Shown: positions 6,887 to 31,585, counted from the first letter of the stretch. The stretch is DNA of 50,798 nucleotides from an uncultured Candidatus Saccharibacteria bacterium (GCA_964576745.1 CAZNUY010000001.1:1-50798), one strand, 5' to 3'. The notes: generated by a model not told the origin, from the sequence alone. Program-made: numbers and translations.

Positions 6887-6887
6887 C

Positions 6888-7638: not shown

Positions 7639-7654
7639 TATTTTAGTTAATCTA

Positions 7655-7690
7655 AAACAAAAAATCACCTTAATAGGTGGTTTTTTGTTT
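7655..7690 (+). terminator. intrinsic terminator after the DUF378 gene
   Basis: Hairpin CACCT-TAAT-AGGTG extended by A/T pairs and followed by a T-run. Confidence 0.6.
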
Positions 7691-7741
7691 TAATCGGCTT
7701 GAATTTTACTGATAGTTAGTGTATAAATAGATTATATAAAT

Positions 7742-7814
7742 GCGCCCTTAGCTCAGTTGGTAGAGCAACCCATTTACACTGGGAAGGTCAGGAGTTCAAG
7801 TCTCTTAGGGCGCA
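7742..7814 (+). tRNA. tRNA-Val (anticodon TAC)
   Basis: Acceptor GCGCCCT/AGGGCGC; D-loop AGTTGGTA; anticodon loop TTTACAC; T-loop TTCAAGT. Confidence 0.85.
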
Positions 7815-7815
7815 C

Positions 7816-8562
7816 TTGAAGATAGTAATACTATATGAAGATAAAGATATAATAGCGGTTAATAAACCTGCTGGTATTGTTGTGCATCCAGATGGCAAAT
7901 CCAAAGGGCCATTTTTAACTGAATGGATACTAAAGAATTATCCTAAAACAAAGAATGTGGGCGAACCTGTAGAGACCAAAGATTATGGAATAATAGAGCG
8001 TCCTGGAATAGTACATCGTCTAGATAGAGATACTTCAGGCGTTATACTTATCGCAAAGACTAAGCTAGGGTTTGATAAATTAAAAGAGCAATTCCAGAAT
8101 AGAACTGTATTAAAAAAATACTTAGCATTCGTATATGGTGAGATGAAAGAAGAATATGGCATTATAAATAGACCTATAGGTAGAAGTCCAAGAGATTTTA
8201 GAAGATGGTCTGCTACTAGAGGTGCAAGAGGGGAGATGCGAGATGCAGAGACTTGGTACCATAGACTGGTTACTAGAACAGGATTTTCTTTTGTTGAAAT
8301 AGAACCTAAAACTGGCAGAACACATCAGATCAGAGTGCATTTCAAGGCTATCAATCATCCTATAGTTTCTGATCAACTTTATGCTTCTGATAAGCCATTG
8401 GCTTTAGGTTTTAAAAGAAATGCCCTACATGCCTATTCTATTGAATTCACTAACCGTGTAGGTAAAAAAATAATTGTAAAAGCACCTATTACCAAGGATT
8501 TCAAAGATGCATTAAAAGAGCTAGGTATCACAGAGGTTGCTAAAAATAAGGGCTTGTGTTAG
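7816..8562 (+). CDS. RluA/RluD-family 23S rRNA pseudouridine synthase (no S4 domain)
   Basis: HRLDRDTSGVILIAKT catalytic motif and GRTHQIRVH. The TTG start lies 1 nt after tRNA-Val. Confidence 0.85.
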   Translation: MKIVILYEDKDIIAVNKPAGIVVHPDGKSKGPFLTEWILKNYPKTKNVGEPVETKDYGIIERPGIVHRLDRDTSGVILIAKTKLGFDKLKEQFQNRTVLKKYLAFVYGEMKEEYGIINRPIGRSPRDFRRWSATRGARGEMRDAETWYHRLVTRTGFSFVEIEPKTGRTHQIRVHFKAINHPIVSDQLYASDKPLALGFKRNALHAYSIEFTNRVGKKIIVKAPITKDFKDALKELGITEVAKNKGLC

Positions 8563-8588
8563 ATTTGTTCTTACATTAGATAATATAT

Positions 8589-9026
8589 ATGGCAACAATC
8601 AACCCTATTTCAACAGTAAATATTGAGGAAAGGAAGAATCTAGATATAAGACCTGGAGATACTATTAAGGTATGGCAGAAGATTCAGGAGAAGGGAAAGA
8701 CAAGACTTCAGGCATTTGAAGGTCTGGTTCTATCCAGAAAGCATGGTACAGAAGCTGGAGGAACATTCACAGTAAGAAAGGTAATTGATGGTGTAGGTGT
8801 TGAGAAAATTTTCCCTCTATATACTCCACTTATAGACAAGATTGAGCTTCTAAGAAGATCAAAGGTTAGAAGAGCAAAGTTGTATTTCGTAAGAGAGAAG
8901 GCAGCAAAGGAAATACGAAGACAAATGAGAAGAATGTTACAGATTGATTCTGATCAGAATACAGATACGAAGCATGCAAGAAGTGAGAAAGCTTCAGAAG
9001 TTTCTCATAACGAGCCTCAAGGTTAA
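8589..9026 (+). CDS. rplS: 50S ribosomal protein L19 with a charged C-terminal extension
   Basis: [33 protein letters not shown]...FTVRK...[19 protein letters not shown]. Confidence 0.9.
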
Positions 9027-9063
9027 GAGCTCGTCTTTGGTATTTTATTTTTTAAAATTTTAA

Positions 9064-9090
9064 AAACGAGCTCTGAACGGGCTCGTTTTG
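9064..9090 (+). terminator. intrinsic terminator after rplS
   Basis: ACGAGC-N9-GCTCGT hairpin followed by TTTT. Confidence 0.6.
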
Positions 9091-9126
9091 CGTTATAAAT
9101 TCGCAAAAAATTGGAAGGTTGAAGTT

Positions 9127-9309
9127 ATGATGAGTATTGGAGATAGTGATATTGTTGTTGATGAAATTGGTAATCCAATTTCTGAACCGAAACAGGGTCA
9201 GGTAGGATTTTCCGATGGAGTCGAATGTACTTTTTTTATTGGGTTTGGATGGCTTACTCAAAATGAGTTAACAAAACTTCGTCTGTCCGAACCACGCATA
9301 GCTCCATAG
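9127..9309 (+). CDS. possible small hypothetical protein
   Basis: 60-aa ORF from an internal ATG, followed by two strong hairpins; no recognisable motif. Confidence 0.3.
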   Translation: MMSIGDSDIVVDEIGNPISEPKQGQVGFSDGVECTFFIGFGWLTQNELTKLRLSEPRIAP

Positions 9310-9371
9310 TTCTCAAAAATAACGACCAAATTATAACCGCACTTGAAATATTAGTGCGGTTATTTCAATTG

Positions 9372-9412
9372 AAAAAAGACCCGTTATCAGTTATAGTGAA
9401 AGGGTCTTTTTG
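9372..9412 (+). terminator. intrinsic terminator, second of two hairpins (the first is the 11-bp perfect stem at 9333-9363)
   Basis: AAAGACCC-N19-GGGTCTTT followed by a T-run. Confidence 0.55.
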
Positions 9413-9419
9413 ATTATAT

Positions 9420-9504
9420 GCCCAGGTGGCGTAATTGGTAGCCGCATACCCTTGAGGTGGGTACGCCGTAAGGTGTGGAGGTTCGAGTCCTCTCCTGGGC
9501 ACCA
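9420..9504 (+). tRNA. tRNA-Leu (anticodon GAG)
   Basis: Type II tRNA. Acceptor GCCCAGG/CCTGGGC; anticodon stem TACCC/GGGTA with loop TTGAGGT; long variable arm; CCA encoded. Confidence 0.85.
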
Positions 9505-9525
9505 GTTCTCAAAAAGTTAATATAT

Positions 9526-9601
9526 GGTGGCTATGGTGTAGCGGTTAGCACCAGAGTTTGTGGAACTCTTAGTTCGGGTTCGACTCCCGATAGCCACCCC
9601 A
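9526..9601 (+). tRNA. tRNA-His (anticodon GTG) with encoded G-1 and CCA
   Basis: G-1 plus acceptor GTGGCTA/TAGCCAC; anticodon loop TTGTGGA; T-loop TTCGACT. The 3' end abuts the left end of the island. Confidence 0.85.
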
Positions 9602-18498: not shown

Positions 18499-18855
18499 GT
18501 GTTCCGGTATGTTCGTTGTGCGATGAAAACATTTATAAAAGCACGGGCGAAAGATACCAATGGCACAAGCTTTGTTGGCTATCTTCAAGCGGATTATGAG
18601 CACATGTTCGCATTATTTAGCTTTCCCAATGATAGGACCAGAGATGATGAGTGGAGATCATCGAACAAGAAGACTCGCTTTGAGTGGGCGTTCAAAACTA
18701 ATGGTAAGAAACCAACGGTAGTCACAATTTATGACTACAAAGATAATCGACAGCTTGAAGACATCGATATGTGGCACGTGGGGTATAAGGGGTCCGAGAA
18801 GGATGTTAAGGATTTCTTTAGAAAGCTTCATTTGTTTGTAATGCCGAAAGTATAA
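18499..18855 (+). CDS. hypothetical protein
   Basis: 118-aa ORF (likely start at the ATG at 18523); no motif recognised. Confidence 0.4.
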   Translation: MFRYVRCAMKTFIKARAKDTNGTSFVGYLQADYEHMFALFSFPNDRTRDDEWRSSNKKTRFEWAFKTNGKKPTVVTIYDYKDNRQLEDIDMWHVGYKGSEKDVKDFFRKLHLFVMPKV

Positions 18856-19097
18856 GAGCAGTTATTTGGAATTTCCGAATAACTCAAAAGTGAGCTAGAT
18901 GTAAGGCTAAACCTAACATCCAGCTACAAAATGAGAAAAACGGAACTTTTAATTTGAAATCGGTGTATTAAAAGTTAGGGGCTTAACTTTTAACGATAGC
19001 TTTTTCGTGAATTCCCTTGTTTTTCTTGGGCGTAATAAGATTTAAGCCATCAAAAACGTGAATTTGTGCCTATTTTATCCATATTTTCACGATTATC

Positions 19098-19126
19098 TTG
19101 ACTAAAACAGTGAAAATGGCTATACT
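19098..19126 (+). promoter_or_regulatory. sigma70-like promoter for the fic/hsd operon
   Basis: TTGACT, a 17-nt spacer, then TATACT, ending 9 nt before the fic ATG (near-leaderless). Confidence 0.5.
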
Positions 19127-19135
19127 ATATGGCAT

Positions 19136-20020
19136 ATGGCAAAAACCCCAGCAGTTTTTAATAAGATCAATATTCTAAGGGAAAGGTACTACAAATCCTT
19201 TCCTGGCAAAGAGTCGCTAATCAAACTTATTAGCGAGGCGGAAATTCCTGAGCAGGTATATAACTCGAATGCGATCGAGAATAGTACTTTGAGTCTCGAG
19301 GAAACAGAAAAAATTCTCCTTCAAATCGATCTTGATCGTTTTATATCAGAGCGTGAAATCTTTGAGGCAAAAAATCTTGCTCGTGTGGTCGGCTACATAG
19401 ATAAGAGAGCAAAGGAACAAGAATTGACGAAAGAGGTTATTCTCTCACTTCATAAAATGCTTTTATCGAATATTCGTGACGATATTGCCGGTAGATTTCG
19501 TAAAGATAATGAGTTTGTTCGTGTCGGTAGTCATATCGCACCCGCCCCTCAAGAGATAGAGGGAAGTATGGATAAGATGATTGCGGAATATAATGCTTCC
19601 GTCGGTGAAAATATCATAAAGAGAATTGCCAAGCTACATCTCGCTTTTGAGTATCTCCACCCATTTTGTGATGGTAATGGTCGTATTGGTCGTGTCATCA
19701 ACAACTACCTTCTTATTCGAGAGGGGTATGTTCCTATCAATATCAAATTTATCGATAGAAAGAAATATTATGATGCATTCAAGGAGTTTGATGCCAAAGG
19801 TACCACTGTTGTTATGGAAGAAATTGTAGCTAAAGCTTTGACCAATAGTTATCACAAACGCTTGGCATATCTTGAGGGTAAGAAAATTGTAGACCTAGCT
19901 GATTGTGCAAAGTCTCATAAGATTTCGCATTCAAATCTTATTAACAAAGCTAACCGTCAAACCATCGAAGCGTTTCTTGAGAAGGGAGTGTGGAAGATAG
20001 GAGATGAACCTTCGCAATAA
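19136..20020 (+). CDS. Fic/DOC-family protein
   Basis: Canonical Fic motif HPFCDGNGRIGR. Confidence 0.85.
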   Translation: MAKTPAVFNKINILRERYYKSFPGKESLIKLISEAEIPEQVYNSNAIENSTLSLEETEKILLQIDLDRFISEREIFEAKNLARVVGYIDKRAKEQELTKEVILSLHKMLLSNIRDDIAGRFRKDNEFVRVGSHIAPAPQEIEGSMDKMIAEYNASVGENIIKRIAKLHLAFEYLHPFCDGNGRIGRVINNYLLIREGYVPINIKFIDRKKYYDAFKEFDAKGTTVVMEEIVAKALTNSYHKRLAYLEGKKIVDLADCAKSHKISHSNLINKANRQTIEAFLEKGVWKIGDEPSQ

Positions 20021-20030
20021 CAAGAAAAAT

Positions 20031-21623
20031 ATGAGCACAAAAGAAATTACAATTAACCAAAATACGACCAAAGAGCAGGAGAGAACAGAACTTCATCGTG
20101 CTATTTGGCAGATCGCCAACGATCTTCGTGGGAGTGTTGATGGTTGGGATTTCAAAACATATGTGCTCGGTATGCTTTTCTATCGCTTTATCAGTGAGAA
20201 TCTAACCAATTACATCAATGCTGATGAACGACGGTCTGGCAAAAAAGATTTTGACTATGCAAATCTCTCCGATAAACAGGCAGAATTCGGTCGCTCAGAT
20301 ACTGTAAAAGAGAAGGGCTTTTATATTCTGCCAAGCGAATTATTTGTGAATGTCCGGAAGAATGCCCGTAATGATGCCAATCTTAATGAGACTTTGTCTA
20401 AGGTTTTTAGAAATATTGAGAATTCAGCAAAAGGTGCAAATAGCGAGGATGATCTCAAAGGATTGTTTGATGACCTAGACGTTAACTCAAACAAGCTCGG
20501 CAATAATGTAGAAAGAAGAAACCAAAAGCTTGTGAAATTGCTCGAGGCAATCGGCGATCTTCGACTCGGTAACTATTCAGACAATACCATTGATGCCTTC
20601 GGTGATGCCTACGAATTCCTCATGACAATGTATGCCTCAAATGCAGGTAAATCCGGTGGAGAGTTCTATACTCCACAGGAAGTAAGTGAACTCCTTGCCC
20701 AGATCACAACTGTAGGTAAGAAAGAGGTAAATAAAGTCTATGATCCTGCTTGCGGGTCCGGCTCACTCCTTCTTAAATTTGCAAAAGTACTTGGTAAAGA
20801 AAACGTTCGACTCGGATTCTACGGACAAGAGATCAACCTGACGACATACAACTTATGCCGTATCAACATGTTTTTGCATGATATAAATTACAACCATTTT
20901 GATATTGAACTTGGTGATACTCTCACTGATCCAAAACACTGGGATGATGAACCGTTTGACGCGATTGTATCAAACCCGCCCTATTCAATAAGATGGGACG
21001 GCGACAGTAATCCCTTGCTTATTAACGATCCACGTTTTTCACCAGCCGGAGTTCTTGCGCCAAAGAGTAAGGCAGACTTGGCCTTCACTATGCACATGCT
21101 CTCATGGCTTTCAACGAGTGGTACTGCTGCCATTGTCGAATTTCCTGGAGTCCTATATCGTGGCGGTGCTGAGCAGAAGATTCGCAAGTATCTCATAGAC
21201 AATAACTACATCGATGCGGTTATCCAATTACCACCAGACCTTTTCTTCGGTACAACAATCGGAACTTGTATTATCGTTCTTAAAAAGAGTAAGAAGGATA
21301 ACAAAACTCTGTTTATCGATGCCTCTAACGAGTTTGTTCGTAATGGAAATAAAAACAAACTTACTGATGCGAACAGAACAAAAATTCTAGATGCATTTAC
21401 TAACCGCAAAGATATAGAGCACTTTGCAAAACTAATTGAGAATAAAGTTATAGCTGAGAACGATTACAAGATTGACATTTCGTCGTATGTTGATCAGAAA
21501 GACACTCGTGAAGTAGTGAATATCACTGAGCTCAATTCAAAGATAACCCAAATTATTGCGCGACAAAATGAGCTCAGAACAGCAATTGATGAAATCATCG
21601 CAGATATTGAAGGCACAAAATGA
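20031..21623 (+). CDS. hsdM: type I restriction-modification N6-adenine DNA methyltransferase subunit
   Basis: SAM-binding DPACGSGSLL and catalytic SNPPYS motifs, plus the N-terminal HsdM_N-like WQIANDLRG. Confidence 0.9.
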   Translation: MSTKEITINQNTTKEQERTELHRAIWQIANDLRGSVDGWDFKTYVLGMLFYRFISENLTNYINADERRSGKKDFDYANLSDKQAEFGRSDTVKEKGFYILPSELFVNVRKNARNDANLNETLSKVFRNIENSAKGANSEDDLKGLFDDLDVNSNKLGNNVERRNQKLVKLLEAIGDLRLGNYSDNTIDAFGDAYEFLMTMYASNAGKSGGEFYTPQEVSELLAQITTVGKKEVNKVYDPACGSGSLLLKFAKVLGKENVRLGFYGQEINLTTYNLCRINMFLHDINYNHFDIELGDTLTDPKHWDDEPFDAIVSNPPYSIRWDGDSNPLLINDPRFSPAGVLAPKSKADLAFTMHMLSWLSTSGTAAIVEFPGVLYRGGAEQKIRKYLIDNNYIDAVIQLPPDLFFGTTIGTCIIVLKKSKKDNKTLFIDASNEFVRNGNKNKLTDANRTKILDAFTNRKDIEHFAKLIENKVIAENDYKIDISSYVDQKDTREVVNITELNSKITQIIARQNELRTAIDEIIADIEGTK

Positions 21624-21624
21624 T

Positions 21625-22803
21625 ATGACAAAACACCAAAGTAAAATCGAAAGATTAATTGCAGAACTTTGTCCAAAGGGTGTTCAGTCTTTTGGTGTTG
21701 GAGAAGTCTGTCATATTAGCCGAGGCCGGGTCATGTCAAAAGATTATCTAAAGGCCAATGAAGGAGAATATCCGGTTTATTCATCTCAGACAGCAAATGA
21801 TGGTGTCTTTGGAAAGATAAACACATTCGATTACGATGGAGAGTATGTGACGTGGACCACTGACGGCGCTAATGCAGGCTCAGTGTTTTATCGTAATGGG
21901 AAATTTAGTATCACCAATGTCTGCGGTTTACTCAAACCAAAGAAGAATGATCTAAACACAAAATTTCTTTCTTATATCTTGGGTACGCGAGCGAAGTCTT
22001 ATGTTAATGCCGGTATGGGTAATCCGAAATTGATGAGTAATGTAATGGCAACGATCGAGATACCTATTCCACCACTTGCGGTCCAGGAAGAAATTGTCAA
22101 AATTCTTAATAGTTTTACTGAGTTAGAGGCTGAGTTAGAGGCTGAGTTAGAGGCTAGGAATAAACAATATAAGTATTACAGAGATGAGTTGTTAGACATA
22201 AAAGATGCAGAATATAAATCTCTAGGCGAAATTGGAACCCTAATTAGGGGTGGCGGATTGCAAAAGAAAGATTTTGTTCAAGATGGTGTTGGATGTATTC
22301 ATTATGGCCAAATTTATACTCACTACGGGACATTTGCAGATAAGACAAAATCATTTGTATCACCAGAATTAGCAAAGAAGTTAAAGAAAGCACAAAAAGG
22401 TGATGTGTTGATTGCGGGTGTTAGTGAAAATATTGAGGATGTGTGTAAGCCATTGGGGTGGTTAGGTGATGAAATCTGTATTAGCGGTGACATGTTTGCA
22501 TTCCGCCATAATCAGAATACAAAATTTATTACTTATCTTTTACAGACTACAAATTTTCATAAATATAAAGAGAAATTTGCACAAGGTGCTAAAGTTACTC
22601 GCGTAAAGGCTGATAAGATATTAAATTTCAAAATCCCAGTTCCATCTTTGGAAGAGCAAGAAAGAATAGTGTCAATTCTGGATAAATTTGATGTTCTTAC
22701 AAACGATATCTCTATTGGCTTGCCGGCTGAACGTCGGGCTCGTCGGTCCCAATATGAATACTACCGAGGCAAGCTTTTAACATTCAACGAGTATGTCAAC
22801 TAA
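21625..22803 (+). CDS. hsdS: type I R-M specificity subunit
   Basis: Two target-recognition halves separated by a central helical region containing (LEAE)x3; C-terminal conserved helix. The start was taken at the ATG 2 nt after the hsdM stop. Confidence 0.85.
   Translation: MTKHQSKIERLIAELCPKGVQSFGVGEVCHISRGRVMSKDYLKANEGEYPVYSSQTANDGVFGKINTFDYDGEYVTWTTDGANAGSVFYRNGKFSITNVCGLLKPKKNDLNTKFLSYILGTRAKSYVNAGMGNPKLMSNVMATIEIPIPPLAVQEEIVKILNSFTELEAELEAELEARNKQYKYYRDELLDIKDAEYKSLGEIGTLIRGGGLQKKDFVQDGVGCIHYGQIYTHYGTFADKTKSFVSPELAKKLKKAQKGDVLIAGVSENIEDVCKPLGWLGDEICISGDMFAFRHNQNTKFITYLLQTTNFHKYKEKFAQGAKVTRVKADKILNFKIPVPSLEEQERIVSILDKFDVLTNDISIGLPAERRARRSQYEYYRGKLLTFNEYVN
22120..22155 (+). repeat. perfect 3 x 12-bp tandem repeat GAGTTAGAGGCT in the hsdS central conserved region
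   Basis: Read directly from the sequence; encodes ELEAELEAELEA. Confidence 0.95.
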
Positions 22804-25800
22804 CAACAAATACAATCTGGTCGCTGAGAATACTCAAAGCACTGTGGTGTCTGAATACACGCCGGATGGTGTTCGCGTTGCTCATTATCAAAGTGAGGCG
22901 GATCTAGAAAAGGCATTTATTAAACAGCTCGAGACTCAGGCCTATGAATATTTAAAGATTACATCAGAAGATGACCTGGTTCTCAATCTCCGAAAACAAC
23001 TCGAGAAATTAAACAATTTTACTTTTACCGATAGCGAATGGGACCGTTTCTTTAAGGGTGAGATATCAAATCCTAATCAGGGAATAGAAGAAAAAACAGC
23101 AACTATTCAAGAAGATCATGTTAAGAATCTGACTAGAGATGACGGAACTGTAAAGAATATCTATCTCATTAAAAAAGAGAATATTCATGACAATAGTCTG
23201 CAGGTTATTAACCAATATGCCACTGAAGATGGACAGCGTTCAAATCGTTACGATGTGACGGTCCTGGTTAACGGTCTTCCATTGGTCCACATTGAACTTA
23301 AACGACGAGGTGTCGCTATTCAAGAGGCTTTCAATCAAATAAACAGATATCAGCGAGAGAGTTTCTGGGCAGCTGCCGGCTTGTTTGAGTATGTACAACT
23401 ATTTGTAATCTCAAACGGCACTCACACGAAATATTACAGCAACACTACACGAGCACAGCACATAAAGGAATCTACCGAAGGTGCCGCCAAGAAAGGCAAG
23501 AGAACAAGCAATAGTTTTGAGTTCACAAGTTGGTGGGCAGATGCTACCAATCGCCCTATCACTGATCTGATGGACTTTGCGAAAACATTTTTTGCAAAGC
23601 ATGCACTTTTGAATATTTTGACTCGTTATTGTGTATTTACCTCAGATCGTCTTTTGCTTGTTATGCGTCCGTATCAGATTGCGGCCACTGAGAGAATACT
23701 GAACCGCATTGAAGTAAGTACCAACTACAAACAACTCGGCACAACTGAGGCAGGTGGATACATCTGGCATACCACCGGCTCAGGTAAGACCCTCACCAGC
23801 TTCAAGACTGCTCAATTGGTCAGCAAGCTACCGTTCATTGATAAAGTTATCTTTGTGGTGGACCGAAAGGATCTGGATTATCAGACAATGCGAGAGTATG
23901 ACAAGTTCGAGAAGGGTGCAGCAAACAGCAATACCTCTACAGCCATTCTTACTCGCCAACTAAGCGATACCAATGCTCGCATTATCATAACGACGATCCA
24001 AAAACTCGATCGGTTTATTGATAGAAACTCTGGGCATACCATCTTTGATGGACACGTGGTCCTTATTTTCGACGAATGTCATCGTTCACAATTTGGTGAT
24101 ATGCACGCGGCTATTACTAAAGCCTTCAAGAATTATCACATCTTCGGATTTACTGGTACGCCGATATTTGCAGTGAATGCATCATCCGGCGGCAGACCTG
24201 ATCTTCGAACTACAGAGCAAGCCTTCGGTAGCAAACTTCATACATATACAATCGTCGATGCGATCGCTGATAAAAACGTCCTTCCGTTTAAGGTTGATTA
24301 TGTTTCTACCGTTCGTGAAGCTGAAGATATTGAGGATAAGAAGGTTAGCGACATTGATAGAGAAGCTGTACTTGCTGCGCCTGAGCGTCTTTCTAACATC
24401 GTGAGTTATATCAGGGAACACTTTGATCAGAAGACTAAACGTAACAGTTTTTACAAACTCAAAGATAAAAGATTGGCCGGTTTCAACTCCATCTTCGCCG
24501 TTTCCTCAATTGATGTTGCCAAGAAATACTACGCTGAATTCAAAAGACAGCTTGCTGATTTGCCAAGTGATAAAAGATTGAAGGTTGCTTTGATATATAG
24601 CTTTGGCGTAAACGATGAGGATGCAGATGGAATGATCGATGAGAATTCTGAGGATACATCTGGGCTTGATGTAAGTTCAAGAGATTTTCTAGACTCAGCG
24701 ATTGTTGATTACAATTCGCTGTTCGGTACAGCGTACGATACATCATCGGATAAATTTCAAAACTACTACAAGGATGTAAGTCAAAGAGTTAAGGATCGGG
24801 AGATTGATGTCCTTATCGTGGTAAATATGTTCCTAACCGGATTTGACGCCACAACTCTCAATACCTTGTGGGTAGATAAAAATTTAAGACTACATGGACT
24901 TCTTCAGGCATACTCACGAACAAACCGAATCCTTAACAGCGTAAAGACATTCGGAAATATTATATGTTTCCGTAACCTGGAGAAAGCGACAAATGAATCA
25001 ATAGCACTATTTGGTGATAAGGAAGCAAGTGGAATCGTACTACTCAAATCATACGCCGAATACTATAACGGGTACAAAGATGGAAATAAGGAAGTGCGAG
25101 GATATGCGAGCTTGGTGGCCGAGCTTCAGGAAAAGTTTCCGGTTGGTGAACGTATAATCGGTGAGCAGAATCAAAAAGACTTCATCAAACTTTATAGCGC
25201 AATTTTGCGTGTGCGTAATATCCTGGCAACATTTGATGAATTTGCAGGCAATGAAATCCTGTCAGAGCGAGATGTCCAGGATTATCACAGTGCCTACATC
25301 GATCTTTACAACGAATTCCGCAAGAATGTGGAAGAAGAAAAAGAGAACATCAATGATGACGTGGTCTTTGAAATGGAACTCATTAAACAAGTCGAGATCA
25401 ATATCGATTATGTACTCGGACTCATAAAGAAATACCACGAGGACCACATCAAGAATCGTGAACTTCTGGTTGATATCAACAAAGCTATCGATTCGAGCGT
25501 TGAGTTGCGTAACAAAAAGGATCTTATCAATCAGTTCATCACTTCTCTCGATGTTCACTCAATCGTCGATGAGGATTGGCGTAAGTTCGTTGAAGAAAAG
25601 AAAGTGGAAGAACTCGAGCAAATTATTAAGAATGAGAACCTTGATCGTGAAGCGACTTATAAATTCATCAAGAACGCTTTTCGCGACGGAAGTGTGCCAG
25701 CAACCGGTACCGCAATCAGCAAGGTCCTACCACCGGTATCACGCTTTTCTCCAACAGGCGAGCGTAGTCAGAAACGTGAGAGTGTTCTAAGTAGGCTAAC

Positions 25801-25852
25801 CAGTTTCTTTGAGAGATTCTTTGATATTTCAGGCGGCAAGTTTTCTGAATAA
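22793..25852 (+). CDS. hsdR: type I restriction endonuclease R subunit
   Basis: 1019 aa with an N-terminal nuclease region, helicase motifs TTGSGKTLT and FDECHRSQ, and a start overlapping the hsdS stop. Confidence 0.9.
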   Translation: MSTNNKYNLVAENTQSTVVSEYTPDGVRVAHYQSEADLEKAFIKQLETQAYEYLKITSEDDLVLNLRKQLEKLNNFTFTDSEWDRFFKGEISNPNQGIEEKTATIQEDHVKNLTRDDGTVKNIYLIKKENIHDNSLQVINQYATEDGQRSNRYDVTVLVNGLPLVHIELKRRGVAIQEAFNQINRYQRESFWAAAGLFEYVQLFVISNGTHTKYYSNTTRAQHIKESTEGAAKKGKRTSNSFEFTSWWADATNRPITDLMDFAKTFFAKHALLNILTRYCVFTSDRLLLVMRPYQIAATERILNRIEVSTNYKQLGTTEAGGYIWHTTGSGKTLTSFKTAQLVSKLPFIDKVIFVVDRKDLDYQTMREYDKFEKGAANSNTSTAILTRQLSDTNARIIITTIQKLDRFIDRNSGHTIFDGHVVLIFDECHRSQFGDMHAAITKAFKNYHIFGFTGTPIFAVNASSGGRPDLRTTEQAFGSKLHTYTIVDAIADKNVLPFKVDYVSTVREAEDIEDKKVSDIDREAVLAAPERLSNIVSYIREHFDQKTKRNSFYKLKDKRLAGFNSIFAVSSIDVAKKYYAEFKRQLADLPSDKRLKVALIYSFGVNDEDADGMIDENSEDTSGLDVSSRDFLDSAIVDYNSLFGTAYDTSSDKFQNYYKDVSQRVKDREIDVLIVVNMFLTGFDATTLNTLWVDKNLRLHGLLQAYSRTNRILNSVKTFGNIICFRNLEKATNESIALFGDKEASGIVLLKSYAEYYNGYKDGNKEVRGYASLVAELQEKFPVGERIIGEQNQKDFIKLYSAILRVRNILATFDEFAGNEILSERDVQDYHSAYIDLYNEFRKNVEEEKENINDDVVFEMELIKQVEINIDYVLGLIKKYHEDHIKNRELLVDINKAIDSSVELRNKKDLINQFITSLDVHSIVDEDWRKFVEEKKVEELEQIIKNENLDREATYKFIKNAFRDGSVPATGTAISKVLPPVSRFSPTGERSQKRESVLSRLTSFFERFFDISGGKFSE

Positions 25853-25861
25853 ATTACTCAT

Positions 25862-26593
25862 ATGAATACATTCAAATCTTCAGCAATACAGATACTCAAG
25901 AAAGCCGGCAAGCCTTTACATGTTTCTGAAATCACAAAGCTAGCATTAGAGAGTGGTTTGCTGGTAACCGAAAGCGCGGTCCCTGAGGCGACTATGGGTG
26001 CCCAGATATATACGGACATCAAGAATAAAGGCAAAGCATCTGATTTTATTCAAACGTCAAAAGGTACTTTCGCTTTGAATGCAGGCAAGGAAGCAAAGAT
26101 TCCTACCATAAAGACTATTGAGAAAGAGAAGATAGAGGACGAAAAAATAATTGTTGAAGGTGGCTATACTGGTAAGGGCGGTGAACACTTGGTAACGAGC
26201 GAGCTTCTTTTTCGTGGATATAACGCAAGTATTATGAGTGTTGATGTAGGTGTGGACGTATCAGCTATCAAGGATAATAAATTCTTTGGTATCCAGGTGA
26301 AGACATCAAACTCCAACAAGTTTGATGTGTACAATTTTCATATCCGCAGAGTTTCTTTTGAACGACATAATCAAGGCAATATCTTCTACATATTTGTGTT
26401 GAGAGATGTGGAGAATAAATTCCTCATACTTCCATCGAGTGAGATTGAGCGAAAGATAAAAGAAGGTGCAATCTATGCTGTGAACAATAAAACTGGTTAT
26501 GCTCTGTTGATAAAAATTCGTGATGGCAAGATATTTCTTGGTAGTGGTCATGACATGAGCTACTTCCTCGGTAATTGGGATTTGATTAAATAG
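25862..26593 (+). CDS. HARE-HTH / Mrr_N-like winged helix fused to a PD-(D/E)xK-like nuclease core
   Basis: The N-terminus AIQILKKAGKPLHVSEITKLALESGLL...TSKGTFAL is HARE-HTH-like. The C-terminus GEHLVTSELL...SVDVGVDVSA...FGIQVKT shows an E/D...D...xVK pattern. Confidence 0.55.
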   Translation: MNTFKSSAIQILKKAGKPLHVSEITKLALESGLLVTESAVPEATMGAQIYTDIKNKGKASDFIQTSKGTFALNAGKEAKIPTIKTIEKEKIEDEKIIVEGGYTGKGGEHLVTSELLFRGYNASIMSVDVGVDVSAIKDNKFFGIQVKTSNSNKFDVYNFHIRRVSFERHNQGNIFYIFVLRDVENKFLILPSSEIERKIKEGAIYAVNNKTGYALLIKIRDGKIFLGSGHDMSYFLGNWDLIK

Positions 26594-26595
26594 CC

Positions 26596-28098
26596 ATGTC
26601 AAAAAATGTATTATCTCTCAACTATATAAATGCCAAGAAATTCTTTTTAGAACAAGAGAGTTATACGAATATTGATCTGCCCCCTTATTTTACATTCGGT
26701 AAAACTATTTCAGCGATAAATACTAAATTAAATAATTCAGAGATCTCTTTCAATGAATTAAAATCAGCAAAAACCAACGAGACGATTAACCATGTCCTGT
26801 ATGGCAATAAGGACGGTAAATACGCTTGGAGAAAGTACGAGTTAATACATCCTCTTGTCTATGTCTCTTTAGTAAACATTATCACTCAAAAAGATAATTG
26901 GAAGGTTGTACAAGATAGATTTAAGGAATTTCAGAAAGATAAGAGAATCGAATGCGAAAGTATTCCTGTGCTTAAAGATCACAAATCCAAGCAAAAAGCG
27001 GCACAGATCTCACAATGGGTTGAGAGTGTTGAAAAGAAATCCATCACATTATCATTAGATTATAAGTTTTTGTATCAAACTGATATAACTGATTGCTATG
27101 GGTCTATTTATACCCACTCAATACCATGGGCGATTCATACAAAGACTATCTCGAAAACAAAACGCAATTATGGTGATTTGTTTGGAAACAAAATCGATCA
27201 CCATATTCAGGCAATGAATTGTGGCCAGACAAACGGTATTCCTCAAGGAAGTATACTGATGGACTTTATAGCTGAGATGATTCTTGGTTATGCTGACACA
27301 AAGATCTCAGAAAAATTAAATATTCAATTGAATGGTAAAAAATTTCACATACTCAGATATAGAGATGATTATAGGATTTTTGTGAATGATATTACTGATG
27401 GCGATACTATTTTGAAATGTATAAGTGAAGTACTAATAGATTTTGGTTTTCGTCTAAATACAAGTAAAACCTGTCATTGCGACGATATAATTTCTGGTTC
27501 GATCAAGCCGGATAAACTTGATGCTATAAAATACGGAAGTGTGCCAAAGAAATTTTCGAAAAAAGAGTTAATGAATCAATTATTGATCGTTCAGCAAATC
27601 AGCAAAGATTATCCAAATGCCGGTACATTGAAGGTTAGGATGTCAAAAATCATCGATGCTGTTAAGGTTAAAGATTTCTATTATCAGCAAGAATTTATAG
27701 CCGGTTTACTGACTGATATTGCATACAATAACCCGAATACGTTTCCCGTTGTGGCATCGCTGTTATCAAGCTGTATTTCCAAGTTAACTTTCAAATCAAA
27801 AAAAGAAATCCTATCAAGAATCGAAGACAAAATGTGTAATCTATCAAATATCGGATTGATAGAAATATGGATGCAAAGAATTGCTATTAGATTCAAATTC
27901 AAGCTTTCTTTAAAAGAAAAGCTGTGCAAACTTGTGTATGGTTCGAGTGATCAGATATTTGTTAATACATGGATTACTGATGCCGCAATCAAAAAACTTA
28001 TAGAAGATAGATCATTTATAAATAAGGCGAAGATTGGAAAGATGAAAATAGTTATCGACAAGCGAGAAGTTCAATTATTCAATAATTATTACAATTAA
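26596..28098 (+). CDS. reverse transcriptase, non-DGR, non-retron style (UG/Abi-like) with a helical C-terminal region
   Basis: RT motifs DITDCYGSIYTHSIPWAI, GIPQGSILMDFIAEMIL, ILRYRDDYRIFV (YxDD variant) and FRLNTSKT, followed by about 190 aa of C-terminal helical sequence without a recognised domain. Confidence 0.8.
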   Translation: MSKNVLSLNYINAKKFFLEQESYTNIDLPPYFTFGKTISAINTKLNNSEISFNELKSAKTNETINHVLYGNKDGKYAWRKYELIHPLVYVSLVNIITQKDNWKVVQDRFKEFQKDKRIECESIPVLKDHKSKQKAAQISQWVESVEKKSITLSLDYKFLYQTDITDCYGSIYTHSIPWAIHTKTISKTKRNYGDLFGNKIDHHIQAMNCGQTNGIPQGSILMDFIAEMILGYADTKISEKLNIQLNGKKFHILRYRDDYRIFVNDITDGDTILKCISEVLIDFGFRLNTSKTCHCDDIISGSIKPDKLDAIKYGSVPKKFSKKELMNQLLIVQQISKDYPNAGTLKVRMSKIIDAVKVKDFYYQQEFIAGLLTDIAYNNPNTFPVVASLLSSCISKLTFKSKKEILSRIEDKMCNLSNIGLIEIWMQRIAIRFKFKLSLKEKLCKLVYGSSDQIFVNTWITDAAIKKLIEDRSFINKAKIGKMKIVIDKREVQLFNNYYN

Positions 28099-28104
28099 TT
28101 TTTT

Positions 28105-28854
28105 ATGTCAGAATATTACAAAGCAAGCAGGGGTCCAGCCTGGAACTATGGCGGTCAAAATTGGAAATTGAGTAGATCAAAGATTGATTTATTCTTAGAA
28201 TGTCCAAGATGTTTTTATATCGACAATAAACTTGGAGTAAAGAGGGTCCCGCCATTTCCTTTTTCAATCAATAGTGCAGTCGACCATCTATTAAAGCAGG
28301 AATTTGATTCTCTGAGGATTAAGAATGAGCAACATCCTCTTCAGAAGGAATATGGTATCGATGCTCGACCTGTATCTCATGAGGAATTGGATGAGTGGCG
28401 TAGGAATTTTGGTGGTATTAGATATATACACGAACCAACTGGTCTAATAGTGACTGGTGCGATTGACGATCTTTGGATTAATAGTAAAGGTGAATATATT
28501 GTTGTTGATTACAAGGCAACTGCTAAAGATGAAGCTGTAAAAGCATTGGACAAAGAATGGCAGGATGGCTACAAAAGACAAATGGAAGTATATCAGTGGT
28601 TATTAAGAATGAATGGGTTAAAAGTATCGAACACAGGTTATTTCGTTTATTGCACAGGAAAGATGGACAGAAAAGCTTTTGATAAACGCATAGATTTTGA
28701 TGTGAATCTTATCGAATACGTGGGTAATGATTCGTGGGTGGAAGATACTCTATTTAAAATTAAAAAATGTCTTGACGGTGATAAAATCCCAGCTTCCAGC
28801 CATGATTGTGATTGGTGTAATTATTGGAATGCTAGAAGGGGGATTGAGCCTTAA
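28105..28854 (+). CDS. Cas4/RecB-like PD-(D/E)XK nuclease with a four-Cys cluster
   Basis: N-terminal CPRCFY, core GAIDDLW...YIVVDYKAT, QMEVYQWLL (QxxxY) and C-terminal CDWCNYW. Confidence 0.7.
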   Translation: MSEYYKASRGPAWNYGGQNWKLSRSKIDLFLECPRCFYIDNKLGVKRVPPFPFSINSAVDHLLKQEFDSLRIKNEQHPLQKEYGIDARPVSHEELDEWRRNFGGIRYIHEPTGLIVTGAIDDLWINSKGEYIVVDYKATAKDEAVKALDKEWQDGYKRQMEVYQWLLRMNGLKVSNTGYFVYCTGKMDRKAFDKRIDFDVNLIEYVGNDSWVEDTLFKIKKCLDGDKIPASSHDCDWCNYWNARRGIEP

Positions 28855-28874: not shown

Positions 28875-28903
28875 TTGACAAAAGTATAGTATAGGTGTAT
28901 AAT
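28875..28903 (+). promoter_or_regulatory. consensus sigma70-type promoter upstream of the DGR target gene
   Basis: TTGACA (28875-28880), a 17-nt spacer, then TATAAT (28898-28903). Confidence 0.65.
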
Positions 28904-28936
28904 TGTATTGTAGTTCTTTGATACGAATTGTGAGTT

Positions 28937-28984
28937 GGTCATAGCGAAAAGCGGCTCAATCTTGGGCCCCTCCTCGCTATGACC
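28937..28984 (+). other. 11-bp perfect-stem hairpin in the 5' leader of the DGR target
   Basis: GGTCATAGCGA (28937-28947) pairs with TCGCTATGACC (28974-28984) across a 26-nt loop. It marks the start of the GC-rich block. Confidence 0.6.
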
Positions 28985-29043
28985 ACACCGGCCCATAGTG
29001 CCTCCTCGGCGTAGAGGGAAACCAAAAAGAAAGGAAACTGACC

Positions 29044-29754
29044 ATGGAAACCATGCTCAGCAAAGCGCTCCGCGAATTCACGACCGGACCGCTCAATCAG
29101 CTCATCGTGAACCTCGGTGGCCAGGACGGCGACCAGTGGGAACAACAGCTCAAGCAGTTCCTCCGCAAGGAGCCCTGCTGGACCAATGGCAACGTCACGC
29201 AAGTGGCGCAGCCGAAACCCACACCCTCGATCCTCGAGCTCGTCTCGACGGTCGTGGTCCCCGCAACCACCGTCAACCTCGTCGCCAAAGAGAAGTTCGT
29301 TCGTGACACTGGCCGCAAAGCCAAGGTCAAGATCAGCTATCTCGGCGACAACTTCACCGAATGGTTCCTCTCGGGCTCCGGCAAAACCGAAAACCCGATC
29401 AGCGAACAGACGCTCCGCTACCACAAGTTGCGGCAGTCCTCGGTGGACGGTCCCATCATCGCTGAACTCGGCGGTGTGGAGAAGTCGGAAACGACGCTCT
29501 CTGAGATGTTTGCCCTCATGGAAAAGCAGGGCAAGGGCGAAGACGGTGTTCTCCTGAACAACGGCTACGCTAACATCTTCTACATCAAGGACCAAAATGG
29601 TGTGCTTCGCGCGGTCCTCGTGTTCTGGCGCGACGACGGCTGGTGCGTCTTTGCGTACTCCGTCGGGTACCCGCGCAGGTGGGATGATGGCTACCAGGTG
29701 TTCTCTCGCAATTCTGTTCTCGAATCCTCGGAACCTTCGGCTCCGGCTGCCTAG
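29044..29754 (+). CDS. DGR target (variable) protein with the VR at the C-terminus
   Basis: 236-aa ORF with GC-rich codon usage. The C-terminal 38 codons are the VR copy of the TR. No signal peptide is evident. Confidence 0.85.
   Translation: METMLSKALREFTTGPLNQLIVNLGGQDGDQWEQQLKQFLRKEPCWTNGNVTQVAQPKPTPSILELVSTVVVPATTVNLVAKEKFVRDTGRKAKVKISYLGDNFTEWFLSGSGKTENPISEQTLRYHKLRQSSVDGPIIAELGGVEKSETTLSEMFALMEKQGKGEDGVLLNNGYANIFYIKDQNGVLRAVLVFWRDDGWCVFAYSVGYPRRWDDGYQVFSRNSVLESSEPSAPAA
29598..29711 (+). repeat. DGR variable repeat (VR)
   Basis: 114-nt alignment to 30076-30189 with 18 mismatches, all at positions where the TR has A. Confidence 0.92.
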
Positions 29755-29780
29755 CCTGATCCTTTGTCCCTTGGACACTT

Positions 29781-29822
29781 TGACCCTCAGTCTGCTTCGG
29801 TGGATTGGGGGTCAATTTTTTA
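29781..29822 (+). terminator. terminator-like hairpin plus T-run downstream of the target gene
   Basis: TGACCC (29781-29786) pairs with GGGTCA (29809-29814), followed by AATTTTTT. Confidence 0.45.
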
Positions 29823-30075
29823 TATTTAAATTTCTCTTGCTATACTTATTTCTGAAATCATGTGTTACGTGACGGTTACGGCTTTCATGTCATGGTCTTA
29901 GGATTTTTTTCTCGAGAGTCACACTGGGTATGCCTTGTGTGAGAGTGGGGAAAGTATCTTCAAAAAAATAACAAGAATTGGTATATGAGATTAGTGGACT
30001 TTGAGGTCCCGGATAAAATTCAGCTGGTCATGGTTTGGCTGGCGGTGATATAGATGATCTTGTATACGATAACGC

Positions 30076-30189
30076 TGGTGTGCTTCGCGCGGTCAACGTG
30101 AACTGGAACGACGACGGCTGGAACGTCAATGCGAACTCCGTCGAGAACCCGAACAGGTGGAATGATGGCAACCAGGTGTTCTCTCGAAA
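30076..30189 (+). repeat. DGR template repeat (TR)
   Basis: Contains 10 AAY codons in the VR reading frame, and adenines at all 18 VR-divergent positions. Confidence 0.92.
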
Positions 30190-30209
30190 CTGTTGGTTTT
30201 CTCCTCGGC

Positions 30210-30587
30210 TTAAGGTCGGGGAGTTTTTGCTTGCAAACCTTTCTTCCAGCCACCAAGTTGTCGCCCGATTTCCTCAAGTCTTCCGATTAGGTCCGAGTAT
30301 GTATCAGTTGGAATAATTTTACTTTCCCATGCGAGTTGCACAAAGAACTTCACAATATCAAGTTTTGTGATGGCTTTGTTTAATATTGGTATTTTGTGTT
30401 CAGGTGGGAGATAAGAAAGACAGAATGTGTATTCAAGTACATCAAGAAAAGCCTGTTCAATTCTGTTTCCAATTCCATACCGCTCGATTTTCGGAAAATC
30501 ACGATGGATAGAGAGCCAAAAACGATATGTCTCTTTCGATTTGAGAATTACCTGTGGTAATTCTCGGGGGGGGGGGTAATATGATCC
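30210..30587 (-). CDS. avd: Avd-like accessory variability determinant; open frame lacks a canonical start as assembled
   Basis: My own minus-strand translation, absent from the ORF track: ...KETYRFWLSIHRDFPKIERYGIGNRIEQAFLDVLE...LDIVKFFVQLAWESKIIP...LIGRLEEIGRQLGGWKKGL. It resembles the FPK..ERYG and EvGR.LG.W blocks of bAvd-family proteins. The upstream ATG (complement of 30602-30604) is out of frame across a C11 tract. Confidence 0.7.
   Translation of the reverse strand, partial: GSYYPPPRELPQVILKSKETYRFWLSIHRDFPKIERYGIGNRIEQAFLDVLEYTFCLSYLPPEHKIPILNKAITKLDIVKFFVQLAWESKIIPTDTYSDLIGRLEEIGRQLGGWKKGLQAKTPRP
30566..30576. repeat. G11/C11 homopolymer between the avd 5' region and the RT start
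   Basis: Eleven consecutive G counted on the plus strand, ending 4 nt before the ATG at 30581. Confidence 0.95.
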
Positions 30588-31585
30588 TTATTAGTATGAG
30601 TCATGAGTATAAGAATATCATATCCATCAAAAATCTATGCGATGCGTGGACCGAATTTATATGTGGCAAGAAATCTAAAAAGGACGTTGCTGAATTTTCT
30701 TTGAATCTCTCTCAAAACATTTTCAAATTGCACGAGGAGCTGCGAACAAAAACATATAGACATGGTGCATACGAAGCTTTTTCGATAAGTGATCCGAAGC
30801 CGAGAAGTATTCACAAGGCTACGGTCCGAGATAGATTATTACATCATGCTATTTACAGGATTTTGTATCCCTATTTTGATAAAAAGTTTATTTATGATTC
30901 TTATTCCTGTCGAAAGTTCAAAGGAACACATCGAGCGTTAAATCGGTTTAATGATTTCGTGATGAAAGTATCACAAAGCAATAGTAGGGCATGCTGGGTT
31001 CTGAAATGCGATGTAAGAAAGTTTTTTGCGTCTATTGATCATGAAAAACTCATTGAAATATTCGAGCGACATGTTAATGATATGGAAACGATCTGGCTTG
31101 TAGAGCGCATTGTTGAGAGTTTTCAAAGTACTGGTCCAGGAAAGGGTTTGCCTTTAGGTAATCTGACCTCGCAACTCTTGGTAAATGTTTACATGAATGA
31201 GTTCGACCAGTTTGTGAAGCACAAGCTCAAAGCTAAGTATTATATTCGGTATGCCGATGACTTCGTTATTATTCATCATGAGAAAGGTGTGTTGGTGGAT
31301 GTACTGCCAAAGGTTCAGAGCTTTCTCAGTGAACAGCTAAAGCTGTCTCTTCATCCAGATAAAGTGTTTATTAAGACAGCTTCATCAGGTGTAGATTTTC
31401 TGGGCTGGGTCCATTTTCCGCACCATCGAGTGATACGGACAACAACAAAAAATCGTATGTTCAAGAAAATCAAAGATTCTCAAGAAAAGCCGGAAGTTGT
31501 TCAATCGTATCTCGGGCTTTTGAGTCATGGAAATGGGTGGAATTTACAAAAGAGGATTAAGCCCAAGATAGGCAGAGTTCATTAG
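30581..31585 (+). CDS. DGR-type reverse transcriptase
   Basis: LPLGNLTSQLLVNVYM (the SQ signature of DGR RTs), IRYADDFVI (YxDD), DPKPRSIHKATVRDRLLHHAIY and VDFLGW. The track ORF begins at the GTG at 30554; ATG 30581 or 30596 is more likely. Confidence 0.9.
   Translation: MILISMSHEYKNIISIKNLCDAWTEFICGKKSKKDVAEFSLNLSQNIFKLHEELRTKTYRHGAYEAFSISDPKPRSIHKATVRDRLLHHAIYRILYPYFDKKFIYDSYSCRKFKGTHRALNRFNDFVMKVSQSNSRACWVLKCDVRKFFASIDHEKLIEIFERHVNDMETIWLVERIVESFQSTGPGKGLPLGNLTSQLLVNVYMNEFDQFVKHKLKAKYYIRYADDFVIIHHEKGVLVDVLPKVQSFLSEQLKLSLHPDKVFIKTASSGVDFLGWVHFPHHRVIRTTTKNRMFKKIKDSQEKPEVVQSYLGLLSHGNGWNLQKRIKPKIGRVH

Follow-up and report, generated by a model that had tools for sequence, protein, structure and literature searches.

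Do three genes that close a restriction-modification operon in an uncultured Candidatus Saccharibacteria bacterium make up one defence system, or several that stand side by side? The genes lie at positions 25,862–28,854 of a 50,798-nucleotide stretch of DNA (GCA_964576745.1 CAZNUY010000001.1:1-50798), the whole of which we call the window and whose coordinates are used unless another locus is named. A preliminary description, made from the sequence alone, had taken them for a candidate undescribed defence module in which a reverse transcriptase (RT) is flanked by two nucleases. We refer to the first, second and third gene of this trio as A, RT and C, and to the genome and metagenome stretches compared as L001 and so on. 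The genes, with lengths in amino acids (aa) and the basis of each assignment, are:

25862–26593, + strand: protein A, 243 aa, predicted HARE-HTH domain plus PD-(D/E)xK nuclease (Pfam, AlphaFold fold search, alignment)
26596–28098, + strand: predicted AbiP2-family RT-like polymerase, 500 aa (PADLOC AbiP2 profile, PDB entry 7r08, Pfam RVT_1)
28105–28854, + strand: protein C, predicted solo Cas4-like/RecB-family PD-(D/E)xK nuclease, 249 aa (PDDEXK_1, fold search, alignment)

Calling of open reading frames (ORFs) and reading of the junctions agreed on the existence and order of the trio, all co-directional with the preceding hsdR gene, and on the gaps of 9 nucleotides (nt) between hsdR and A, 2 nt between A and RT and 6 nt between RT and C. 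The reading that we favour, and consider probable, is that these are independent defence modules stacked in one array behind a type IC restriction-modification system. Judged by their sequences all three are of known kinds: the RT is an AbiP2, A a HARE-HTH–nuclease fusion and C a solo Cas4-like nuclease. What may be new is the linkage of AbiP2 with restriction-modification systems and the promiscuity of C as a cassette, including its pairing with two RT families.

The reverse transcriptase matches the AbiP2 family

The PADLOC profile for AbiP2 (PDLC03744) matched the RT at E 6.6e-179, aligning residues 2–499 with profile positions 4–487 of 489; the runners-up were Drt6 (3.5e-56), Drt4 (3.2e-51) and AbiK (1.1e-27). 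The Abi-P2 structure (PDB 7r08) was matched at E 1.2e-77, in an alignment that extends to query residue 448, and the RT of the founding phage P2-EC30 at 34.5% identity over 99% of the query (E 1e-76; P2-EC58 likewise 34.5%). Pfam RVT_1 was also found. NCBIfam, which is without an AbiP2 model, returned Drt4 and Drt3b matches only, both far below their cut-offs.

The motifs pointed out in the preliminary description are present, PQGS at residues 216–219, YRDD at 255–258 and LNTSKT at 287–292; D163 of motif A and Y255-R256-D257-D258 of motif C (YxDD) are invariant in a 19-sequence family alignment. Tyrosine Y31, which is at least 90% conserved in that alignment, pairs with residue 61 of the 7r08 chain in a gap-free block with an offset of 30. 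Tyr61 is the priming tyrosine of Abi-P2, a trimer and potentially a hexamer that carries out template-free DNA synthesis primed from the protein itself (Figiel et al., PMC9508834). A helical C-terminal domain is present, covered by the 7r08 alignment to residue 448 and by the AbiP2 profile match to 499. On these matches we read 26596–28098 as a full-length but divergent AbiP2-family member in which active site and priming tyrosine appear intact.

A UG/Abi-type enzyme, as opposed to a diversity-generating retroelement (DGR), retron or group II intron RT, is what the preliminary description had proposed, and PADLOC, NCBIfam, Rfam and repeat scans all bore this out: the group II model scored 40 against a cut-off of 300, and there was neither an Rfam match to the RT nor an msr/msd-like repeat. 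A DGR downstream carries a separate RT at 30554–31585, distinct from the AbiP2 RT. The PADLOC check puts the RT squarely in AbiP2. It does fall in a characterised family, then, but whether it keeps the same partners there is a question that does not apply, as AbiP2 has been treated as a stand-alone defence protein (PMC9226505).

The three genes are exchanged singly

One genome per species was scanned for relatives of the RT; 579 AbiP2 relatives were obtained, of which the best 80 were examined. About 70 of these AbiP2 loci, at 40–45% RT identity and from many phyla, contained no A or C by tblastn or by family hidden Markov models, the latter run with filters off on all ORFs of the 80 genome loci, and the gene downstream of the RT is not conserved among them. 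The RT clade considered below consists of Patescibacteria loci with an RT at least 55% identical, plus the outlier L018 (42%), and comes to 14 distinct loci, individual homologue look-ups included.

Within this clade A is missing from 11 of the 14 loci and C from five; four (L007, L182, L185 and L187) have neither, and A lies downstream of the RT in one (L008). Upstream of the RT, A was seen only in L001/L002, where the RT is 90% identical to that of the window and the hsd operon is the same; as such close relatives, these do not count as an independent observation of the trio. Considering 25 loci with A and 100 with C, the two nucleases occur together only in the window, in L001/L002 and in L120, where all three genes fall within 4 kb in the order RT-C-X-A. 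C is carried by L001, L003, L004, L005, L006/L030, L009, L010, L018 and L189. In L004 (Magasanikbacteria) the C homologue at 4989–5640, which follows an AbiP2 RT, is itself split into two overlapping frames, a frameshifted pseudogene or an assembly error.

Comparison of related loci revealed exchange at the level of single genes. L007 has the RT gene alone in common with L005 and L009, the shared stretch coinciding exactly with the gene, and L005, L006 and L009 possess RTs that are 90–97% identical together with C alleles merely 57–64% identical to each other. Over 11 RT-C pairs the pairwise identities of RT and C are weakly correlated (Spearman 0.39) and in places grossly discordant.

A new type of defence system with three obligate components would suit the short gaps, the absence between the genes of any promoter-like site matching at least 10 of 12 consensus positions, the shared order in L001/L002 and the proximity of all three genes in L120. 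Yet L001/L002 are near kin with the same restriction-modification operon, L120 has a different order, A and C keep company nowhere else, most of the clade is without A, and the genes change singly at gene borders; we regard such a system as very improbable. The trio is not confined to the window, as it recurs in L001/L002 and reshuffled in L120, but beyond these no conserved trio was found. The reading of A, RT and C as an undescribed three-gene module is therefore not supported. Each nuclease is, moreover, mostly found without an RT.

AbiP2 reverse transcriptases habitually accompany restriction-modification operons

HsdS is encoded directly upstream of the AbiP2 RT in 18 of the 57 loci that have a + strand upstream neighbour, and HsdR is among the downstream neighbours in 5 of 43. 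In the CPR (candidate phyla radiation) clade a restriction-modification component precedes the RT array in eight of 11 judgeable loci, a count that excludes L004 (neighbour not annotated individually) and L010 and L018 (contigs too short). These eight comprise type I systems in window/L001 and L008, an N6_Mtase in L003, ResIII in L005, L006, L007 and L009, and a methyltransferase with ResIII in L182; L120, a locus reached by way of C, adds a ninth, its upstream genes being a methyltransferase and DpnII. In L185 and L187 the RT has no restriction-modification system in its vicinity. The partners of AbiP2 span types I, II, IIG and III. From the neighbour counts and those of the CPR clade it follows that the position at the end of an operon is a habit of the RT family and not a peculiarity of the window: AbiP2 RTs habitually lie in or behind restriction-modification operons. 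AbiP2 is also a regular resident of defence islands well outside enterobacterial P2 prophages. Neighbours in the more distant AbiP2 loci (L013–L082) include Schlafen/AlbA_2 (five loci) and HATPase_c_4 (three loci), GmrSD_N, RhuM and AAA_15/AAA_21 ATPases.

Additional defence genes within type I restriction-modification operons are documented, among them PrrC, RloF and TgvAB (PMC11411939), and 'guilt by embedding' has been described for defence genes in such operons (Payne et al. 2024, 10.1101/2024.01.29.577857). AbiP2 is not named in the main text of the latter paper, which cites the almost exclusive embedding of PrrC in type I systems. The RT might likewise act as a guard, comparable to the PrrC anticodon nuclease at EcoprrI, and would then stay silent until a phage anti-restriction protein disabled the restriction-modification complex. 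The exclusivity of PrrC speaks for this, as do the HsdS and CPR-clade counts given above. Against it, the founding Abi-P2 resides in the variable region of a P2 prophage (PMC9226505), L185 and L187 manage without a nearby restriction-modification system, and the range of partner types argues against a specific protein-protein guard. We hold a guard function to be quite unlikely.

Protein A trails restriction-modification operons with or without a reverse transcriptase

Residues 3–72 of protein A match Pfam HARE-HTH (E 9e-18) and are followed by a disordered acidic linker. In the AlphaFold model (predicted local distance difference test score, pLDDT, 81) residues 104–243 take a PD-(D/E)xK fold, for which the SPARDA DREN nuclease, I-Ssp6803I and archaeal Hjc were matched at E 3e-4 to 2e-3. 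E108, D128, D132 and Q145-x-K147 are invariant among 26 homologues, D...QxK being the motif of the Mrr catalytic domain (PMC11037411). The C-terminal half had no Pfam (Mrr_cat included), NCBIfam or PADLOC match and no PADLOC model fits A; PDB sequence searches with A, and likewise with C, returned chance matches only (E > 0.1). The winged helix and restriction-endonuclease-like core of the preliminary description are thus confirmed as a HARE-HTH domain and a PD-(D/E)xK fold. Proposals that HARE-HTH reads modified DNA are among the matters summarised in PMC11037411, and A is predicted to be a stand-alone restriction-type nuclease, possibly a modification-sensing one.

Homologues of A number 816. 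In seven distinct contexts a restriction-modification system stands upstream on the same strand every time, and in four of the seven there is no RT:

Context 1: type I-like restriction-modification system, SMODS, DUF6602, A
Context 2: two methyltransferases, A
Context 3: Eco57I, ResIII, A
Context 4: AlwI restriction enzyme, methyltransferase, A, patatin
Context 5 (the window): hsdMSR, A
Context 6 (L008): hsdRMS, RT, A
Context 7 (L120): methyltransferase, DpnII, RT, C, unknown gene X, A

The placement of A varies where an RT is present (A-RT-C in the window, RT-A in L008, RT-C-X-A in L120). Protein A represents a gene class with the habit of trailing restriction-modification operons, whether or not an RT is there.

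Protein C behaves as a mobile single-gene cassette

Protein C matches PDDEXK_1 at E 4e-14 (53.5 bits against a cut-off of 22) and remains below the Cas4 cut-offs (PF01930, 17.6 against 22.7; TIGR00372, 27.1 against 65). The segments CPRC 33–36, IDD 120–122, DYK 135–137, QMEVY 159–163 and CDWC 235–238 are invariant among 26 homologues, which places D121/D122, D135-Y-K137, Q159...Y163 and the cysteines C33, C36, C235 and C238 among the invariant residues; C222 is conserved in at least 90%. The cysteines are arranged two and two (CxxC...CxxC), in contrast to canonical Cas4 with one N-terminal and three C-terminal. The model (pLDDT 77) has RecE, Cas4, AdnAB nuclease domains, lambda exonuclease, Exo5 and MGME1 as fold matches. 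Profile, motifs and fold thus agree with the preliminary assignment of C as a Cas4/RecB-like nuclease with CxxC...CxxC and QxxxY, and its catalytic residues, like those of A, are present and invariant on alignment.

Close homologues of C exceed 8000, and the best 120 are 78–98% identical across many CPR lineages; the wider family forms 267 clusters at 50% clustering (E up to 1e-30). Viral contigs of IMG/VR yielded no relatives of A or C in an exact-peptide-word scan, which can miss distant relatives, and a phage origin of A or C is not supported by that exact-word scan. Solo Cas4 is reported to be over-represented in CPR/DPANN genomes, with mostly vertical evolution, and to adjoin restriction-modification systems (Hudaiberdiev et al. 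2017, PMC5704561).

We examined the surroundings of C in 80 metagenomic loci with close homologues (77–96% identity) and in three long-contig examples. About 85% of the close homologues sampled adjoin no RT, and an AbiP2 RT stands upstream of C in five of the 80 metagenomic loci. The 65 genes upstream of C fall into 35 families, a few of them metabolic. HerA occurs in ten loci and a retron-type RT of 305 aa (PADLOC RT_VI, E 4.9e-61) in eight; a family of 540–631 aa found in seven loci was equated with the UvrD/GajB-like matches by member counts alone, and Eco57I-type genes occur in four. HsdR/HsdS, an OLD-family ATPase, Schlafen/AlbA, AAA_13, Z1, GmrSD_N, Fic and KilA-N were also encountered, and C directly trails restriction-modification operons without any RT as well. 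It is nearly always on the strand of the upstream gene, mostly 1–15 nt behind it, and no locus holds a second copy. The three long-contig loci contain no RT: C follows a PLD-helicase and an Eco57I-type gene in one and a RhuM/Fic protein in another, and is alone in the third. Fic/RhuM genes were also seen upstream of C homologues in L086 and L128.

The borders of the exchanged segment are sharp. Nucleotide homology between C contexts begins 2–19 nt before the start codon of C and, where C alone is shared, stops between about 25 nt inside its 3' end and about 3 nt past the stop codon. The RT-linked C proteins are polyphyletic. L005 carries a C with 97.6% identity to the retron-linked C of L110, and the RT-linked C of L120 and the OLD-linked one of L124 are 98.4% identical; in both pairs C alone is in common and both flanks differ. 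In other pairs it is the upstream gene that changes. L123 (754–5354) and L110 (215–4224) share 95% nucleotide identity from 14 nt before C to 3.1 kb downstream, in a block that includes a PDC-S54 gene, and have an AbiP2 and a retron-type RT, respectively, in front of C, a case of one cassette cleanly replacing another at a gene border. L105 and L125 similarly keep C and the downstream genes constant with different upstream genes. C behaves as a promiscuous and highly mobile single-gene cassette at the 3' end of many Patescibacteria defence operons, a pattern that we did not find described in the literature examined.

Downstream of C (L102–L181) there are often small stand-alone nuclease-fold genes, namely DUF2726 (four times), DUF559/MTES_1575 (four times), Mrr_cat and RmuC; PDC-S54, AbiE and some housekeeping genes (LexA, TspO, oxidoreductases) were also observed. 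It would seem that solo PD-(D/E)xK genes, several in a row, close the defence islands of CPR.

The same data can be read with C as the fixed element, that is, as a nuclease that small-genome bacteria conserve for DNA repair or recombination and whose upstream side is a landing hotspot for defence cassettes. The high identity of the best 120 homologues across many CPR lineages, the limit of one copy per locus, the constancy of C and the genes behind it when L123 is compared with L110 and L105 with L125, the largely vertical evolution reported for solo Cas4 in CPR/DPANN (PMC5704561) and the housekeeping genes among the downstream neighbours would all agree with it. This reading is unlikely in our judgement: L120 and L124, and L005 and L110, share C and neither flank, the downstream neighbours are often of defence type, and C alleles are swapped behind near-identical RTs, which resembles an arms-race gene more than a core gene.

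Is protein C coupled to the reverse transcriptase?

Several observations weigh against full independence of the modules and favour a link between RT and C. C lies directly downstream of the RT in nine of the 14 clade loci, with gaps of 4–9 nt (a raw adjacency count, not an enrichment), and these include L018, so that the pair occurs with RTs of 42% to 90% identity. L005, L006 and L009 retain a collinear Res-RT-C block, which has outlasted the exchange of C alleles. C also follows an unrelated DNA-synthesising enzyme, the retron-type RT, in eight loci, and AbiP2 (L123) and the retron RT (L110) fill the same slot before a 95%-identical block led by C. Adjacency and swapping of this kind could reflect a functional RT-nuclease link or coincidence equally well.

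AbiP2 and C might accordingly be a functional two-gene variant, with C as accessory or effector of the RT and A unrelated; C might work on the single-stranded DNA (ssDNA) product of the RT or be regulated by it, or might degrade phage DNA after the RT has been triggered. In the predicted model, the fold of C is like those of ssDNA/5'-end exonucleases (RecE, Cas4, Exo5, MGME1). Accessory nucleases have been proposed for UG2 (RmuC) and UG26 (a Vsr-like protein) (PMC9226505), and ACE1 with Argonaute is a precedent for a Cas4-family accessory. Set against this are the five clade loci and the roughly 70 distant AbiP2 loci that lack C, the stand-alone status reported for E. coli Abi-P2 (PMC9226505), the predominance of close C homologues away from any RT, the polyphyly of RT-linked C and the weak correlation of RT and C identities. 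C is found directly behind restriction-modification operons too, and may track those and not the RT. We give the two-gene variant a modest chance of being correct.

In the eight loci with the retron-type RT (L105, at 4082–5750, and also L107–L111, L113 and L117) the 305-aa enzyme is followed by the C homologue after 1–2 nt; RT_III-A and Ec107-like profiles match this RT too. By its sequence the pair may be a retron with a Cas4-like effector. A broader proposal would make C a portable effector or accessory that serves the DNA-synthesising defence polymerases of CPR, its activity coupled to their ssDNA, with AbiP2 and retron RTs interchangeable, other operons joined more loosely and RT-C an undescribed two-gene AbiP2 variant. 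We put this forward tentatively and think it rather doubtful.

Layout of the array and its surroundings

The trio ends a longer array in which the following features were recognised, all on the + strand:

19098–19126, + strand: promoter-like site (TTGACT-17-TATACT, 10/12 consensus match), putative in function
19136–20020, + strand: Fic/DOC-family gene, which heads the array (Pfam Fic E 1.2e-22; PADLOC PDC-S04 E 4.9e-35 and SoFic E 3.5e-28)
20004–21623, + strand: hsdM, type IC (EcoR124 family) methyltransferase subunit (EcoR124II M protein 7bst_D, E 1.8e-188)
21556–22803, + strand: hsdS, specificity subunit (EcoR124II S 7bst_A, E 1.3e-39)
22793–25852, + strand: hsdR, restriction subunit (Pfam HSDR_N, SWI2_SNF2, T1R_D3-like and EcoR124_C, E 3.8e-67)
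28875–28903, + strand: perfect sigma-70-like promoter (TTGACA-17-TATAAT, 12/12), which opens the unit of the DGR target gene

On these matches Fic-hsdM-hsdS-hsdR is assigned as a type IC restriction-modification system, in which the Fic/DOC gene overlaps the start of hsdM by 17 nt, and the defence setting proposed for the trio stands. The site at 19098–19126 is the sole one on the + strand with at least 10 of 12 matches within 18800–28854 in a promoter-consensus scan, and a terminator scan across 18.8–29.2 kb gave no terminator-like site. The array is thus bracketed by two promoter-like sites with no terminator-like site found, which makes a single transcript from Fic through protein C plausible; the predicted promoter at 28875–28903 would be its 3' boundary.

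The preliminary description was also right that Cas1, a CRISPR array and msr/msd-like repeats are absent from the neighbourhood. A tandem-repeat scan showed no CRISPR-like array, the ORFs of 17–33 kb include no cas genes, an Rfam scan detected tRNAs alone and no other non-coding RNA, and inverted- and tandem-repeat scans of the trio revealed no long inverted repeat and no retron-like or msr/msd-like element.

The centre of hsdS contains a perfect 12-nt tandem repeat of 3.2 copies at 22118–22155 (CTGAGTTAGAGG), which encodes LEAE repeats. In the HsdS of EcoR124I/II the copy number of an equivalently placed 12-bp repeat alters the spacer of the recognition site, and by analogy the repeat of the window could be a specificity switch.

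The GC content is 0.388 for A, 0.322 for RT and 0.373 for C (trio mean 0.351), compared with 0.378–0.414 for hsdMSR, 0.37 for the window and 0.33–0.35 for the flanking genome. The trio had been described as more AT-rich than the restriction-modification genes; this is clearly so for the RT but not for A and C, and the trio as a whole is close to the genome average. Separate acquisition, as argued from base composition, was rejected in that form: only the RT is AT-rich, and the trio agrees with the average of the genome. The GC-richer outlier is the restriction-modification region. The differences among A, RT and C are consistent with separate histories. Further upstream, six tRNA genes (Arg-GCG, Ser-TGA, Arg-TCT, Val-TAC, Leu-GAG and His-GTG) occupy 686–9601, and at about 9 kb, beside tRNA-Leu and tRNA-His, GC climbs from roughly 0.32 to roughly 0.43. 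The tRNAs may have been the insertion site of an island, namely the GC-richer block of 9–26 kb, in which a heavy-metal ATPase and the restriction-modification operon reside.

Directly downstream of C we observed a complete DGR:

28875–31585: the DGR as a whole
29044–29754: target gene (GC 0.59 against 0.37 for the genome; GC3 0.785)
29598–29711: variable repeat
30076–30189: template repeat
30554–31585: DGR RT

Mismatches between the repeats are essentially all at template adenines. A 24-nt inverted repeat (28936–28985; 83% complementary, 2-nt loop) lies in the 5' leader of the target gene, in the interval from promoter to start codon. The leader at 28875–29043, which had been considered for inclusion in the trio module, turned out to be the promoter and 5' untranslated region of this target gene.

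A working model of the array

If the modules are independent, as we favour, the hsd system would restrict unmethylated DNA and protein A would add a second restriction-type endonuclease activity, its winged helix reading DNA and possibly modified DNA. Going by its family membership, the AbiP2 RT would form trimers or hexamers, make untemplated ssDNA primed from Y31 and give, by itself, back-up protection of the abortive-infection type, as E. coli Abi-P2 does. Protein C would be an independently mobile gene with a 5'-3' exonuclease fold. A, RT and C would then be separately exchangeable single-gene modules placed after Fic-hsdM-hsdS-hsdR, probably on the same transcript, and neighbours because CPR defence islands are tightly packed runs of co-directional cassettes and AbiP2 favours restriction-modification operons.

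For annotation, the fitting name for 26596–28098 is AbiP2, beside a type IC restriction-modification system, and no new RT system should be flagged there. The linkage of AbiP2 to such systems extends over many phyla, with HsdS directly upstream in about a third of loci. In the ultra-small Patescibacteria, defence islands appear to be built of precisely bounded single-gene cassettes, of which the roughly 250-aa C is the most promiscuous. If C does assist these systems, it would offer a testable handle on the events that follow untemplated DNA synthesis by Abi polymerases, and might inform how bacteria without RecBCD finish off restricted DNA.

Comparison with known systems

The nearest relative of the RT is Abi-P2 of E. 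coli P2-like prophages (P2-EC30/EC58; PDB 7R08), to which it is joined by the full-length profile match, 34.5% identity, a helical C-terminal domain behind the RT palm and fingers, YxDD and a tyrosine matching Tyr61. It differs in its host, a member of the Patescibacteria as opposed to an enterobacterial prophage, and in its position at the end of a type IC restriction-modification operon between two nuclease genes, whereas Abi-P2 has been described as stand-alone. AbiK, DRT4 and DRT6 (class 1 UG/Abi) likewise combine an RT-like with a helical domain and belong to a family whose chemistry is protein-primed and template-independent, but their profiles score far more weakly with the RT of the window.

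Protein A resembles Mrr-type and winged-helix type IV endonucleases and HARE-HTH–nuclease fusions in carrying a DNA-reading N-terminal domain on a D...QxK PD-(D/E)xK core. Unlike Mrr-type enzymes, it has no Pfam Mrr_cat match, and its nearest folds are Hjc, I-Ssp6803I and SPARDA DREN.

With CRISPR-associated Cas4, protein C has in common the RecB-like fold (matches 7mi4, 4r5q, 8d3l and 4ic1), QxxxY and D...DxK; unlike Cas4 it scores under the family cut-offs, has cysteines arranged 2+2 and not 1+3, and has no cas1, cas2 or CRISPR array near it. It also compares with the solo Cas4-like proteins of CPR/DPANN (PMC5704561), which are likewise stand-alone PDDEXK_1 proteins with RecB motifs and conserved cysteines, free of CRISPR association, abundant in small-genome bacteria and found near restriction-modification systems. 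What sets C apart from these is that it behaves as a single-gene cassette with precise bounds, found after at least 35 upstream families, with two unrelated kinds of RT among the commonest genes upstream.

The array as a whole recalls the embedded PrrC, RloF and TgvAB genes, as its cargo is co-directional with the hsd genes and tightly packed. In contrast to those, the cargo of the window is an AbiP2 RT with two solo nucleases, and it is placed after hsdR rather than between the hsd genes.

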